64,000 nt of DNA from Pseudomonas phage SW_PA2862_11_24. Position 1 is the stretch's first letter. Every line of letters begins with the position of its first letter. The translations under genes were made by a program, and so were the position numbers. Below the pieces are notes generated by a model. It ran no database searches and had not been told where the DNA came from. It saw only the letters and a list, made by a program, of their open reading frames with translations. Location: the sequence record PV574406.1; one strand, given 5' to 3'. Below, piece by piece: positions 9,501 to 19,582 of the stretch.

Positions 9501-9977
9501 ATGCTACATAGTGAAGCCCGGGCGATGGCCCTACAAGAGATGGACAAGTGGAGCCTCCTCGAACAAGGTTGGAAATTCAGTTTCAATCGCAGGATGAAAC
9601 GGACGCTAGGCCGTTGTAATCACGCTAAAAAGCTCATAGAGCTAGGTTACAGCTACGTATCTGCCAATGGAGTGCCTGCGGTATTAGATACTATCCGCCA
9701 TGAAATAGCTCACGCTAAGGCGGGACCGCATCATGGTCATGATTCCGTATGGAAAGAGTGGTGCGGATTGATTGGCGCTAAACCTGAGCAGTACGCCAGC
9801 ACAAAGGAAAAAGTAGTCGTCTATCCGTGGCGACTGGCCATCCATCACGGTGGCGGCCAGCTTGAACTACTCAACCATTACGGTTTCAGACGGACTAGCA
9901 TGGCGAGAAAACAGGTACGAGGACGGCCTGAAACGTTGGGCAGGTTAATTTGGGTGAAGAACGAAAATAAGGGTTGA
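9501..9977 (+). CDS. SprT-like zinc metalloprotease domain protein
   Basis: HEIAH (HExxH) motif; SprT-like N-terminal region FSFNRRMKRTLGRC. Confidence 0.6.
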   Translation: MLHSEARAMALQEMDKWSLLEQGWKFSFNRRMKRTLGRCNHAKKLIELGYSYVSANGVPAVLDTIRHEIAHAKAGPHHGHDSVWKEWCGLIGAKPEQYASTKEKVVVYPWRLAIHHGGGQLELLNHYGFRRTSMARKQVRGRPETLGRLIWVKNENKG

Positions 9978-10005
9978 CAGCTTGGGCCATTCGCGTAGAA
10001 TGGCC
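9974..10005 (+). promoter_or_regulatory. conserved early promoter TTGACAGCTTGGGCCATTCGCGTAGAATGGCC (palindrome GGCCATTC-N5-GAATGGCC over -10)
   Basis: near-identical copies at 11519, 13994, 16724, 17328, 19256, 19551. Confidence 0.7.
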
Positions 10006-10051
10006 CTCAAGCAAAGGGAATCACCCTGAGCACCCACGCAGGAAAGCAGAT

Positions 10052-10318
10052 ATGAAAGCTCTTTGTAATCATCGGGCACTCTACGCGGCTTACAATCGTA
10101 GCGAGCTTGGTCGTATTGCGGTAGATTTGAACCGCTACTTCCCTATCGAGAAAGATGATGAATGGGAAGACGGCGCATATATGTATCGTCGCCGCACCTA
10201 TCTGGTGAAGCATTCGAAGGGTACAGCCCGTTGGCACAGTCTTTACTGCAATGGGATCGTCCAAGGCGTTGGCGTCATCTTCGACGTGAAATCGGGTGAA
10301 CCTTTCCGCACAGCATAA
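10052..10318 (+). CDS. hypothetical protein
   Basis: ATG 10052 with RBS AGGAAAG; 88 aa. Confidence 0.5.
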   Translation: MKALCNHRALYAAYNRSELGRIAVDLNRYFPIEKDDEWEDGAYMYRRRTYLVKHSKGTARWHSLYCNGIVQGVGVIFDVKSGEPFRTA

Positions 10319-10331
10319 AGGAGATTCAGAA

Positions 10332-10475
10332 ATGCAAGCTTGGAACGTATACCAGAACGGACAGTTGATCGATATTGTTTTCTTCGATATTATGTGTGAT
10401 ACCGTGGAGGTGCGGAAGTCTCTGGTAAATCATGATGGATACCCATCCGATATCACTGTAGAGGAGGCCGAGTGA
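10332..10475 (+). CDS. hypothetical small protein (47 aa)
   Basis: RBS AAAGGAG 7 nt upstream. Confidence 0.4.
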   Translation: MQAWNVYQNGQLIDIVFFDIMCDTVEVRKSLVNHDGYPSDITVEEAE

Positions 10476-10762
10476 TGGATAACCTTTCTGTTAAAATCGT
10501 TCTGTCGGAACTGAGTTACAAGGCCTTGATTCAAGCCTTCGCCTTGCTTGGTCGAACGCTCGACCTAGACGAAGGGTTGGACGATATACTTAACCTCATC
10601 GCGGATGAAATCGCTTTCCGCGATGGCCTGCCGCCTTTCGCAGACGACTGCGATAAAACAGAATGGATGCTCCGTCGATGGGAATCGCTCCCGGTGGTAT
10701 CGTACAATATCGGGCAGGACGGACCGATTGTCGCTCGGTCTATCGAAGTAAAAACGGCATGA
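10475..10762 (+). CDS. hypothetical protein
   Basis: TGATG overlap; RBS GAGGAGG. Confidence 0.5.
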   Translation: MDNLSVKIVLSELSYKALIQAFALLGRTLDLDEGLDDILNLIADEIAFRDGLPPFADDCDKTEWMLRRWESLPVVSYNIGQDGPIVARSIEVKTA

Positions 10763-10772
10763 GGGGAGAACT

Positions 10773-11007
10773 GATGACCGTCAGAGTAGGAGACATAGTG
10801 GCTATCCGGGGCGACATTCGGAAAAAGCTCGACGGAACGTGCCAATACACGCCCGAACAATTGGTAGATGGTAAGTTCCTCAAGCATGCCGGCACGGGAG
10901 AAATATGGACTGGCCGAGTGAGTAAGATACAAGGTGATATGGCCAAGGTGGGAGGGGCTTGGCGCGGGATCGAATTCTATGTGCTCATTAGTGAAATAAA
11001 CGCTTGA
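10773..11007 (+). CDS. hypothetical protein
   Basis: ATG 10773 with RBS GAGGGGAG; 77 aa. Confidence 0.5.
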
Positions 11008-11032
11008 CAACCTGACCCACTAGCTGCAAAAT
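11004..11032 (+). promoter_or_regulatory. sigma70-like promoter TTGACA-N17-CAAAAT
   Basis: weaker -10. Confidence 0.35.
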
Positions 11033-11077
11033 AGCACCCACAGACAACGAAGACGCCGATAGGCGAGGAGAAAGCAG

Positions 11078-11206
11078 ATGCAAATGTTTTTCAAAACCCG
11101 TACCCAAGCCCGTGCAATGGCCACCAATGGCCGTAAAGTGGTAGACAACGGCGCTCAAGCTGAAAAGCGCTGGGCTGTCAAGCTGAACAAAAAGGAGGCG
11201 AAATAA
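11078..11206 (+). CDS. hypothetical small basic protein (42 aa)
   Basis: RBS GAGGAGAAAG; stop overlaps next ATG. Confidence 0.35.
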   Translation: MQMFFKTRTQARAMATNGRKVVDNGAQAEKRWAVKLNKKEAK

Positions 11207-11514
11207 TGGCTAAGTCTGTCAGTGTAGATCGCAAGCGTTCCATCCTCGACGAAGCGAAGGATGGCAGTTTCTTCAGTGTGGAGTTTATCAAGGCGGACGG
11301 CACCGTTCGGAAAATGACGTGTAAACGTCAGATCAAGTCGGCGTATGCTAACGGCCAGTTTGCTACCCGCAAGCCCACCAGCGCCGGCAAGCCGCACCTG
11401 TATACCGCCGCCGAAGTGCTGAACATGGAAGAGGGTAAATCCGCTTTCCGCACTATCAACCTTGAGACTCTGACCCGCGCCAAGGTAAACGGAATCGAGT
11501 ATAAATTCGATTAA
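11206..11514 (+). CDS. hypothetical protein
   Basis: 102 aa; RBS AAGGAGG. Confidence 0.55.
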   Translation: MAKSVSVDRKRSILDEAKDGSFFSVEFIKADGTVRKMTCKRQIKSAYANGQFATRKPTSAGKPHLYTAAEVLNMEEGKSAFRTINLETLTRAKVNGIEYKFD

Positions 11515-11518
11515 AAGC

Positions 11519-17937: not shown

Positions 17938-17966
17938 TTGACGGGGCCCGAAAAGGGCCCCATAAT
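17938..17966 (+). promoter_or_regulatory. sigma70-like promoter TTGACG-N17-CATAAT with spacer palindrome GGGCCC-GAAAA-GGGCCC
   Basis: read directly. Confidence 0.5.
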
Positions 17967-18002
17967 GCACCCATACCAGCAAACAGCATCAGGACCGCCC
18001 CG

Positions 18003-18215
18003 ATGAGCCAGATCAAAATCCAAGAGTATATCGTAGCCGAGATCAAGGTTAACCATTGCGCTCACCTGCGCAAGGGCCAGACCATCCAAGCCCGCGATGA
18101 TCGTAGCAGTGAAAAGTGGATTGCATTCATGGTGGAACGCGGGTATAGTGCCTCTGAAGCCGCTATCCTGTTCAAAGACGCCCATGATGTGGCAATGCTC
18201 GAACTGGCAGCCTGA
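18003..18215 (+). CDS. hypothetical protein
   Basis: ATG 18003; 70 aa. Confidence 0.5.
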   Translation: MSQIKIQEYIVAEIKVNHCAHLRKGQTIQARDDRSSEKWIAFMVERGYSASEAAILFKDAHDVAMLELAA

Positions 18216-18241
18216 AGAAAATCCTACTAGGAGTACTGACA

Positions 18242-18412
18242 AATGAAACGCCAATATACCGACTCTTACCAGTGCAAAGCAATCGACGGCATGATCTCTA
18301 TCCTCGGCAGCAAGAAAGTTACCACTCAAGTGCCGCCGTCGATGAAAGCCTCTCGAAACCGCCTGCTGAAAAAGATGGTAAAATACGTCAGCCGGTCAGG
18401 ATGGAAACCGTA
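18242..18412 (+). CDS. hypothetical small protein
   Basis: 56 aa; RBS AGGAG. Confidence 0.35.
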
Positions 18413-18484
18413 ACCGGCAAACTGGCACAGCCCCGGGCGTTCCGGGGCCACCCCGTCCGTAATGACCCCATAGGAGATAGAAAA

Positions 18485-18946
18485 ATGAATATTCTGTTTA
18501 TCCATAAAGACTCCGCCTACACTGTTCAATCCATCCGTGAATTCCTGCAAGCGGCAGTAGATAACATCCGGGTATCGGGTCTCATTGTAAACGAATATAG
18601 CGGCGACGGTTTGGGCCCTAACGCTCCAGACTACCGAATAGCTATCGTCACCCCGGAAGAGTTCTACCGCACTTTCTATATTCAGGTGGAACTGGCCACG
18701 CTGTATCAGAGTGATCCTCGGCTAGTGTTTACAGACGCTGACAGCCCGGCTTACAAGATGCGAGCCGAGACGGCCATGAAATGCGGAGAGTGGAGTTACA
18801 TGACCGTTTGGCAGCATATCCGTCTGAAAGATATGACTGCTATGGCAAGCTTGGAAGTGTGGGCAGTAGCTCTAGCCGACTCCGCACGACAGGTTGATAT
18901 CGATCCCCGACCTAACGCTGGTAAACTCGGTCAGACGATTCACTAA
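18485..18946 (+). CDS. hypothetical protein
   Basis: ATG 18485 with RBS AGGAGA; 153 aa. Confidence 0.5.
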   Translation: MNILFIHKDSAYTVQSIREFLQAAVDNIRVSGLIVNEYSGDGLGPNAPDYRIAIVTPEEFYRTFYIQVELATLYQSDPRLVFTDADSPAYKMRAETAMKCGEWSYMTVWQHIRLKDMTAMASLEVWAVALADSARQVDIDPRPNAGKLGQTIH

Positions 18947-18962
18947 AAGGAGGTAGCATCAA

Positions 18963-19250
18963 ATGAAGAGCAAGTATGCAAATAACATCGCCACGGAATA
19001 CAACCTCCTCTGTCGCGTTCGCGGGATCACTTTAGTAAGCGCCCGTCGCCACCCTGATAGCCGAGTCGTGAAGGTGGCAGCGCTCTACGCCTGTGCGGCC
19101 TATGGCCGTCCTTACAAGGACTGTATTGGGGCCTACAAGGCTGCTAAGCGGCGGGAAAAGGATATGCGAAACCCCGCCACATGGAAGCTCAGCCGGGAAG
19201 CTAAGCGGGCCGTGCAGTGGCTACAAGCTGCCATGAACAAACGCAAATAA
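18963..19250 (+). CDS. hypothetical protein
   Basis: 95 aa; RBS AAGGAGG. Confidence 0.5.
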   Translation: MKSKYANNIATEYNLLCRVRGITLVSARRHPDSRVVKVAALYACAAYGRPYKDCIGAYKAAKRREKDMRNPATWKLSREAKRAVQWLQAAMNKRK

Positions 19251-19255
19251 AGTTG

Positions 19256-19287
19256 TTGACAGCCTAGGCCATTCTTGTAGAATGGCC
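19256..19287 (+). promoter_or_regulatory. conserved early promoter copy
   Basis: TTGACAGCCTAGGCCATTCTTGTAGAATGGCC. Confidence 0.7.
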
Positions 19288-19323
19288 ATCAAGCAAACGG
19301 AACAACCCCCGGAGGGTTAGATT

Positions 19324-19554
19324 ATGCCAGTATTCAATATTGACCAATCCGTGACCGTAGAGGCCGAGGTGGAGAAAGGCTGCAAATCGCGAATCGCTCA
19401 CCTGTGGGACTCTGAGGGTAATGACCTTTCGTGCAAGCTGGGCGTTACTCGAACCGCTAACGTTAAAGCGGCTTGCGCTTACCTTATCAAGGACGCATGG
19501 TCCGTGGCTGTGACTACAGACTGTGGCGTTACGGTACGTCGCGGAAAGGCTTGA
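19324..19554 (+). CDS. hypothetical protein
   Basis: 76 aa; RBS GGAGGG. Confidence 0.5.
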   Translation: MPVFNIDQSVTVEAEVEKGCKSRIAHLWDSEGNDLSCKLGVTRTANVKAACAYLIKDAWSVAVTTDCGVTVRRGKA

Positions 19555-19582
19555 CACCATAGGCCATTCCTGTAGAATGGCC
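19551..19582 (+). promoter_or_regulatory. conserved early promoter copy
   Basis: TTGACACCATAGGCCATTCCTGTAGAATGGCC. Confidence 0.7.

Follow-up and report, generated by a model that had tools for sequence, protein, structure and literature searches.

In the 64,000-nucleotide stretch of Pseudomonas phage SW_PA2862_11_24 analyzed here (sequence record PV574406.1; hereafter the window), the early gene block holds nine promoters within 9.6 kb, seven of which carry a perfect 8-bp inverted repeat that straddles the -10 element (Table 1). We judge there to be an even chance that each of these seven elements is a cassette of the promoter-early stem-loop (PeSL) type, i.e., a promoter, a stem-loop acting at the RNA level, and a recombination joint combined in a single short sequence. 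PeSL cassettes are known from the T4-type phages RB49, phi1, PST, and nt-1 (Arbiol et al. 2010; Comeau et al. 2014) and comprise an AT-rich tract holding the upstream stop codon, an early promoter matching the sigma70 consensus, and a Shine-Dalgarno sequence with an ATG at the 3′ end. Their stable stem-loop most often lies between the -35 and -10 elements or overlaps the -10, and lowers downstream expression as strongly as rrnB T1. The cassettes are repeated in hyperplastic ORFan regions, where recombination between copies shuffles the genes they flank.

Over region 9500-20000, the window shares 98.4% identity with Pseudomonas phage vB_Pae_Kat, which identifies the window as that of a Pakpunavirus, a PAK_P1-like P. 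aeruginosa myovirus. A total of 278 Pseudomonas phage records match this region, with the matches to more distant relatives fragmented into many pieces. The palindromic promoter itself is the same element as a published 41-nt intergenic repeat (TTGACA and TAgAAT) of an 11-kb variable region, present in 5-6 copies per PAK_P1-like genome and two per KPP10-like genome and read as a sigma70 early promoter (Henry 2015; PLoS One 10:e0117163; PMC4309531). That work called the perfect conservation around the hexamers 'more unusual' and speculated on P. aeruginosa specificity; it proposes no role for the extra conserved bases, and the word palindrome is absent from it. Seven copies occur in this window, with a spacer that we count as 16 nt, compared to the 17 nt given both in the paper and in an initial annotation of the window made from the sequence alone. 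No mention of the palindrome was found in the literature searched, and a search with both arm sequences returned only unrelated short hairpin RNA and primer papers. The finding opens no new kind of biology, the promoter repeat having been published in 2015 and the cassette concept in 2010.

For early transcription by sigma70, as for the terminator or attenuator function of PeSL stem-loops, we draw on the literature. In the GenBank record of phage EPA1 (MN013356), copies of the repeat are annotated as 'promoter'. The corresponding block of phage PAK_P4 constitutes its early region, with transcription at 3.5 min post infection (PMC5563952), and in phage PAK_P3, 78.7% of 75 mapped transcription starts have sigma70-like promoters, with all promoters tested active in an E. 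coli reporter, and several in P. aeruginosa, without phage factors (PMC10914365). Together with the consensus hexamers and the interpretation by Henry 2015, these reports support the early sigma70 promoters proposed in the initial annotation. A 60-nt query representing the extended repeat consensus matched 173 Pseudomonas phage records and was 100% identical in phages PaP1, Kat, and EPA3.

Pakpunaviruses and Nankokuviruses rank among the phages most often used in therapy against P. aeruginosa, and the early region, which encodes host-takeover genes without known function, is the part that varies between isolates. If true, a PeSL-type organization would explain how this region is rebuilt and exchanged, also between the two genera, and would predict insertion points at which engineered genes bring their own promoter and insulation. 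It would also make the element a very strong, compact, and portable promoter for Pseudomonas.

Anatomy of the promoter and conservation of the palindrome arms

An exact search for GGCCATTC-N5-GAATGGCC returned seven matches in the window, all on the + strand (0.00 expected from 100 shuffles), and allowing up to three mismatches added no further sites in the window. These are the seven copies listed in the initial annotation, whose coordinates (9974 and so on) correspond to the starts of the -35 hexamers. All seven promoters read TTGACA-16 nt-TAGAAT and match the sigma70 consensus at 11 of 12 hexamer positions, bearing out the fit claimed earlier, and in every copy the palindrome begins 11 nt after the start of the -35 hexamer. 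The left arm, GGCCATTC, sits in the spacer and is the exact reverse complement of GAATGGCC, which is made up of the last four bases of the -10 element and the discriminator. As the right arm opens with GAAT, the final four bases of TAGAAT, the dyad (21 bp, centred at about -13, with a variable middle) straddles the -10 element in the way previously described.

The consensus previously drawn for the element was too strict, given that copy 19551 carries TTGACACCATA, copy 19256 has the loop TTGTA, and the full 20-nt leader CAAGCAAGACAAAC occurs in only four of the seven copies (11519, 13994, 16724, and 17328). The sole part of the leader common to all seven, (C/A)TCAAGCAA, covers ~9 nt around the start site and is kept as well in relatives without the palindrome, and hence looks like core promoter or initial transcribed sequence; the suggestion that the leader is an RNA-level element is therefore weak. 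We confirmed that TTGACAGCTT is common to the promoters at 4442 and 58019. An outer stem extension, GCTT..AAGC, is found only in copies with GCTTG or GCTTA and shows no covariation; for this reason, and because TTGACAGCTT is present in non-palindromic promoters too, we did not count it as part of the element. The promoters at 12351 and 15541, regarded earlier as degenerate palindromes, pair at only three and two of eight arm positions, respectively, and instead represent a separate non-palindromic class with the same promoter frame (hexamers and spacing).

The same two classes were seen among 129 promoter sites fitting TTGACN-N16-TANAAT that we gathered from the window and from 22 related loci. 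The relatives were taken from GenBank phage records, as pattern scans of IMG/VR gave mostly chance matches and ~12 true relatives. The 129 sites share the promoter frame and a CA-rich start region and contain either both arms of the palindrome or neither, with no promoter among them carrying a single arm. The palindromic class is found in Pakpunavirus and Nankokuvirus genomes, including two perfect copies in PAK_P3. The Otagovirus phiPsa374, vB_PseuGesM_254, and metagenomic relatives lack it and retain the frame and a TCAAGCAAG start region. For phiPsa374, Henry 2015 reports no homologue of the repeat, whereas we found promoters with the same frame, lacking the palindrome.

Across 52 distinct palindromic cassettes, the fraction of non-consensus bases was 0.022 in the left arm and 0.000 in the GGCC of the right arm, compared to 0.200 in the five spacer nucleotides preceding the left arm and 0.288 at loop positions 1-3. 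Sigma70 requires no particular sequence in the spacer, and a near-invariant left arm at this location is therefore under selection of its own. This pattern bears directly on the possibility that the palindrome has no function, an ancestral strong promoter having held it by chance and the cassette having since spread by duplication, conversion, and exchange. The cassettes are indeed mobile and recently exchanged (see below), the main family lacks covariation, and promoters without the palindrome are found at the same genes and junctions. Nevertheless, we consider this explanation improbable: positions only 1-8 nt from the invariant arms are polymorphic (0.20-0.29, versus 0.02 in the arms), both within and between genomes, a pattern that conversion tracts would not give. 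Additionally, a perfect 8-bp inverted repeat in 41 nt is improbable by our own estimate (order of 1e-3), and other promoters have independent hairpins of different sequence at this place.

Variants of the arms were rare: four cassettes carry GGCCGTTC and two carry GGCCCTTC, and GGCCATTG, AGTCATTC, and, in the right arm, TAATGGCC were each seen in a single cassette. The commonest, GGCCGTTC, breaks the DNA dyad and keeps a G.U pair on the sense strand, at a cost of 0.4 kcal/mol (-19.1 versus -19.5 kcal/mol). With approximately three events each, the comparison of wobble and non-wobble variants is not discriminating.

Cassette layout and the hairpin in RNA

The upstream open reading frame (ORF) ends between 4 nt inside the -35 hexamer and 7 nt before it, the TGA stop codon falling within the hexamer itself in the cassette at 13994, and the hairpin begins 7-18 nt after this stop codon. 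An A-rich tract precedes TTGACA, the 25 nt before the -35 being 56-72% AT in six of the seven copies (51% for the whole window), and the next ATG follows 39-53 nt after the -10. Folded as RNA, the palindrome forms a stem of 8-13 bp with a free energy of -12.8 to -19.5 kcal/mol. Based on the usual distance from the -10 to the start site, the transcript of each promoter is expected to start past the right arm, and thus the hairpin would be present only in transcripts reading in from upstream. Such read-through is likely, as no canonical + strand terminators lie between 9974 and 20391, and in PAK_P3 77% of genes are found in at least two transcriptional contexts (PMC10914365).

This layout is that of a PeSL, with a stop codon in an AT-rich tract, a sigma70 promoter, a stem-loop over the -10, and a Shine-Dalgarno sequence and ATG. 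As in the T4-type phages, many copies (here nine promoters in 9.6 kb) lie amid hyperplastic small genes without known function, and recombination at the copies inserts, deletes, and swaps the flanked genes (here 17 of 53 homology breakpoints). Two differences were noted. One stem sequence is fixed in most copies here, whereas the stems of PeSLs vary and are often polyG/polyC; and the terminator function and mini-circles demonstrated for PeSLs would here be predictions by analogy. The likeness is drawn on layout rather than on direct sequence comparison and, as both phage family and host differ, the elements would be analogues of PeSLs, not homologues. We found no literature linking PeSLs to Pseudomonas phages of this group.

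By analogy with PeSLs, and from the pattern of variation in the arms, the hairpin would act on upstream RNA. Host RNA polymerase with sigma70 fires the cassette promoters immediately upon infection, and transcripts reading in from an upstream promoter would contain the hairpin, folding into an 8-13 bp stem-loop past the upstream stop codon. The stem-loop may then attenuate read-through, or mark or protect the 3′ end of the upstream message, such that the small early genes would be transcribed as separate units. The ~41-60 nt of near-identical sequence acts in addition as a joint for homologous recombination, allowing early-gene modules to be deleted, swapped, or exchanged between phages. The promoter and recombination parts of this account are established here or in the literature.

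Hairpins of other sequence were noted on several further promoters. At the 15541 promoter, a 12-bp stem (-24.9 kcal/mol, z -3.95) contains the -35 in its 3′ arm, and UUUUUGU comes after it in the spacer. In the 4442 promoter, TTGACA sits in the loop of a GC stem, with UUUGUGU and then the -10 (TATTCT) next; an overlapping terminator and promoter are annotated at the equivalent position in the EPA1 GenBank record (MN013356). The promoter of nadV (- strand, 29981) carries a perfect 10-bp palindrome of its own, GGCCCAGATT-N5-AATCTGGGCC, over TATAAT, and this stem is 100% paired in five Pakpunaviruses through one CG->UA double change and two UA->UG changes. In three of the five, the nadV -10 has decayed to TGTAGT or TGTAAT with the stem still fully paired, and so the conserved feature at this site seems, from these sequences, to be the hairpin rather than the promoter. 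Lastly, a phiPsa374 promoter (position 15398) reads GCCCATTCT-N9-AGAATGGGC, its spacer complementing its own -10 and discriminator; it differs from the family of P. aeruginosa phages by a G/C swap and a longer loop. The occurrence of such hairpins at other promoters favours a structural hairpin as the common principle over a single protein site.

Several observations weigh against an RNA-level role of the palindrome and against its part in recombination. There is no U-tract after the hairpin (the next bases are CTCAAGCAAG), and it is thus not a canonical intrinsic terminator. No compensatory double substitution was found in the main family among the 52 cassettes, and approximately half of the rare arm variants (GGCCCTTC, GGCCATTG, and AGTCATTC) break pairing. 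The covariation noted above comes from the nadV promoter in five sequences and is statistically weak, with 100 of 500 shuffles doing equally well. Strict conservation of the sequence of both arms is equally expected of a protein-binding site. Lastly, non-palindromic promoters serve as recombination junctions too, and hence the palindrome is not required for shuffling. Separately, a count of terminator-like structures in the region, bearing on an antisense idea (leader hairpins with TTTGTCTTGC), gave 26 compared to 17.0 in shuffled sequence (sd 4.9) and is not above the shuffles.

Recombination at the cassettes and exchange between genera

Comparison among relatives revealed identical upstream flanks joined to differing downstream genes at the cassettes. 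The 171-aa gene between the 16724 and 17328 cassettes is, along with cassette 5, precisely missing in phages PAK_P1, JG004, and MAG1, and one IMG/VR genome lacks the gene that lies between cassettes 19256 and 19551. Comparison with six genomes yielded 53 distinct homology breakpoints. Of these, 17 fall in the nine cassettes of the block, where ~3 would be expected since the cassettes make up 5.6% of the region (binomial p = 2.6e-9), and eight of the nine cassettes are used.

Recombination at the cassettes appears to extend across genera. We compared positions 10052-19250 of the window with positions 51,087-60,554 of the Nankokuvirus PAK_P3, and noted one DNA match whose start coincides exactly with the -35 of cassette 16724. 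Relative to the complete PAK_P3 genome, protein identity is 65-86% for the early genes linked to cassettes, compared to 24-61% for the terminase, portal, capsid, sheath, and replication proteins. DNA identity is 74-92% for the early modules and, where detectable at all, at most 69% for the core genes. That the early modules are closer to PAK_P3 than the core genes indicates a recent exchange of cassettes and genes between the two genera, which explains the identity of the palindrome in both without a shared regulator.

This bears on the possibility, raised in the initial annotation, that the palindrome is an operator for a dimeric protein. Such a protein, encoded by the phage or by P. aeruginosa, would bind the double-stranded DNA across the spacer and -10 and shut off or time a subset of early promoters. 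A perfect 21-bp dyad at about -13 with a variable centre is in the classic position for a repressor, and resembles classical operators over the -10 (e.g., of the lambda type), whose dyad of ~20 bp spans the spacer and -10. In the 52 cassettes, the sequence of both arms is conserved without covariation, with varying flanks, and the palindromic class is restricted to phages of P. aeruginosa, relatives keeping the frame only, in line with the host specificity noted by Henry 2015 (PMC4309531). On the other hand, the identity of the palindrome across genera is accounted for by the recent exchange of cassettes, the commonest variant, GGCCGTTC, breaks the dyad within a half-site yet retains G.U pairing, and other promoters of this genome have hairpins of unrelated sequence at these positions. 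Unlike classical operators, no cognate binder was identified: the sole helix-turn-helix candidate, an XRE-HTH protein, is limited to Pakpunaviruses and does not co-occur with the site, and no DNA-binding domain was detected in the early-region proteins (Pfam on 19 proteins, PHROGs on nine of them). We therefore regard an operator as an unlikely reading, considerably less probable than a PeSL-type cassette.

The XRE-HTH protein (Table 1), proposed initially as the candidate repressor, contains a genuine HTH_37/HTH_3 domain (Pfam). A tblastn search with it matched 120 Pseudomonas phage records, 118 at ≥90% identity and all of the Pakpunavirus type. The count equals that of the Pakpunavirus-only nadV region, compared to 173 records for the promoter cassette, which include Nankokuviruses. 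The complete PAK_P3 genome carries the identical palindrome and gave no tblastn match at E ≤ 1e-4, and we rejected the protein as a cognate repressor on the basis of this distribution. None of the tests made here supports the palindrome as the operator of a dimeric repressor, and nothing we found shows it to be a repressor binding site, leaving such a role doubtful. Somewhat less likely still is a broader version, in which an operator timing an immediate-early subset travels with the exchanged cassettes and wires acquired host-takeover genes into the same circuit in two genera.

Scanning one genome per bacterial species for the palindrome gave at least 120 matches in unrelated taxa, approximately the number expected by chance by our own estimate, with no P. 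aeruginosa sites among the matches listed. The sole phage-like match among those listed was a 1,190-bp contig of a Methylobacter psychrophilus assembly (NZ_JAOEGU010000146.1, 0.84x coverage), which has the cassette in reverse complement and is almost certainly Pakpunavirus contamination.

Phage N4 early promoters have a hairpin dyad near -12/-13, as seen here, which raises the possibility that the inverted repeat forms an extruded DNA hairpin read by a phage-encoded, N4-like RNA polymerase. A paper on the related phage K5 does name an 'RNA polymerase gp058'. The promoters, however, are consensus sigma70 promoters, and phages of the PAK_P3 type are reported to lack an RNA polymerase, with their promoters active without phage in E. 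coli and P. aeruginosa (PMC10914365). Moreover, the gp058-type gene in the window (51904-52317, + strand) sits in the head-neck module and matches PHROG 222 (tail completion/Neck1, E 2.3e-46). It lies 183-201 nt past a site (51703-51721, + strand) identical to the SrpA-binding palindrome of phage K5, and its PAK_P3 homologue is annotated only as 'similar to putative RNA polymerase'. Based on this location and the PHROG match, the polymerase label of the K5 paper looks wrong. We thus rejected a phage RNA polymerase acting at a hairpin promoter, an explanation that is highly improbable.

Other features of the early block and the window

The coordinates of the cassettes and related features are given in Table 1. 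Among the 19 early proteins searched against Pfam, only DUF7449 and DUF7227 were above threshold, with one further sub-threshold match (WYL_2).

Table 1. Cassettes, promoters, terminators, and associated genes in and around the early block (positions in the window).
Feature	Position	Strand	Details
Palindromic cassette 1	9974..10014	+	-35 9974-9979, palindrome 9985-10005, -10 9996-10001
Gene after cassette 1	10052-10318		88 aa, DUF7449
Palindromic cassette 2	11519..11559	+	Palindrome 11530-11550; then 48-aa ORF 11588-11734
Palindromic cassette 3	13994..14034	+	Palindrome 14005-14025; then 64-aa ORF 14064-14258
Palindromic cassette 4	16724..16764	+	Palindrome 16735-16755; then 171-aa gene 16805-17320
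Palindromic cassette 5	17328..17368	+	Palindrome 17339-17359; then 179-aa gene 17395-17934
Palindromic cassette 6	19256..19296	+	Palindrome 19267-19287, 9-bp stem, 3-nt loop; then 76-aa ORF 19324-19554
Palindromic cassette 7	19551..19591	+	Palindrome 19562-19582; then 64-aa ORF 19628-19822
Non-palindromic early promoter	12351..12378	+	TTGACA-16-TAGAAT, 3/8 arm pairs; also recombination junction
Composite terminator/promoter	15518..15568	+	12-bp stem 15518-15550, -35 TTGACG in 3′ arm, TAGAAT 15563-15568
Composite terminator/promoter	4432..4470	+	3′ of ribonucleotide reductase genes; stem GGCCCGG../..CCGGGCC
Nicotinamide phosphoribosyltransferase (nadV) promoter	29948..29981	-	Own 10-bp palindrome 29948-29972 over TATAAT
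Strong intrinsic terminator	8496..8523	+	Upstream of early block
Strong intrinsic terminator	20391..20419	+	Closes early block
XRE-type HTH protein, 91 aa	32838..33113	-	Candidate repressor of the initial annotation; Pakpunavirus-restricted

The window also contains a tRNA cluster of 14 genes called by ARAGORN (42483-45399, + strand). Rfam at gathering thresholds returned only tRNAs over the whole window, and gave an extra weak tRNA match at 43248-43321 that ARAGORN did not call.

A further consensus promoter, TTGACA-16-TAGAAT with a 7-bp inverted repeat over the -35, lies at 9228-9255 on the - strand, aimed leftwards and off the early block, and is conserved in all seven Pakpunavirus loci where it was found. 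Downstream of this promoter we found no convincing ORF or unusual fold, and an Rfam search over 8900-9300 at E ≤ 1 was empty; the promoter may drive a non-coding or antisense RNA.

Many early leaders show a short GC hairpin 8-30 nt past the predicted start, after a CA-rich unstructured 5′ end (CAAGCAAG...), with examples on the + strand at 12380-12420, 15570-15600, 10010-10035, and 19590-19615, among others. In phages that cause mass RNA decay, such leader hairpins might stabilise the 5′ end or serve in translation.

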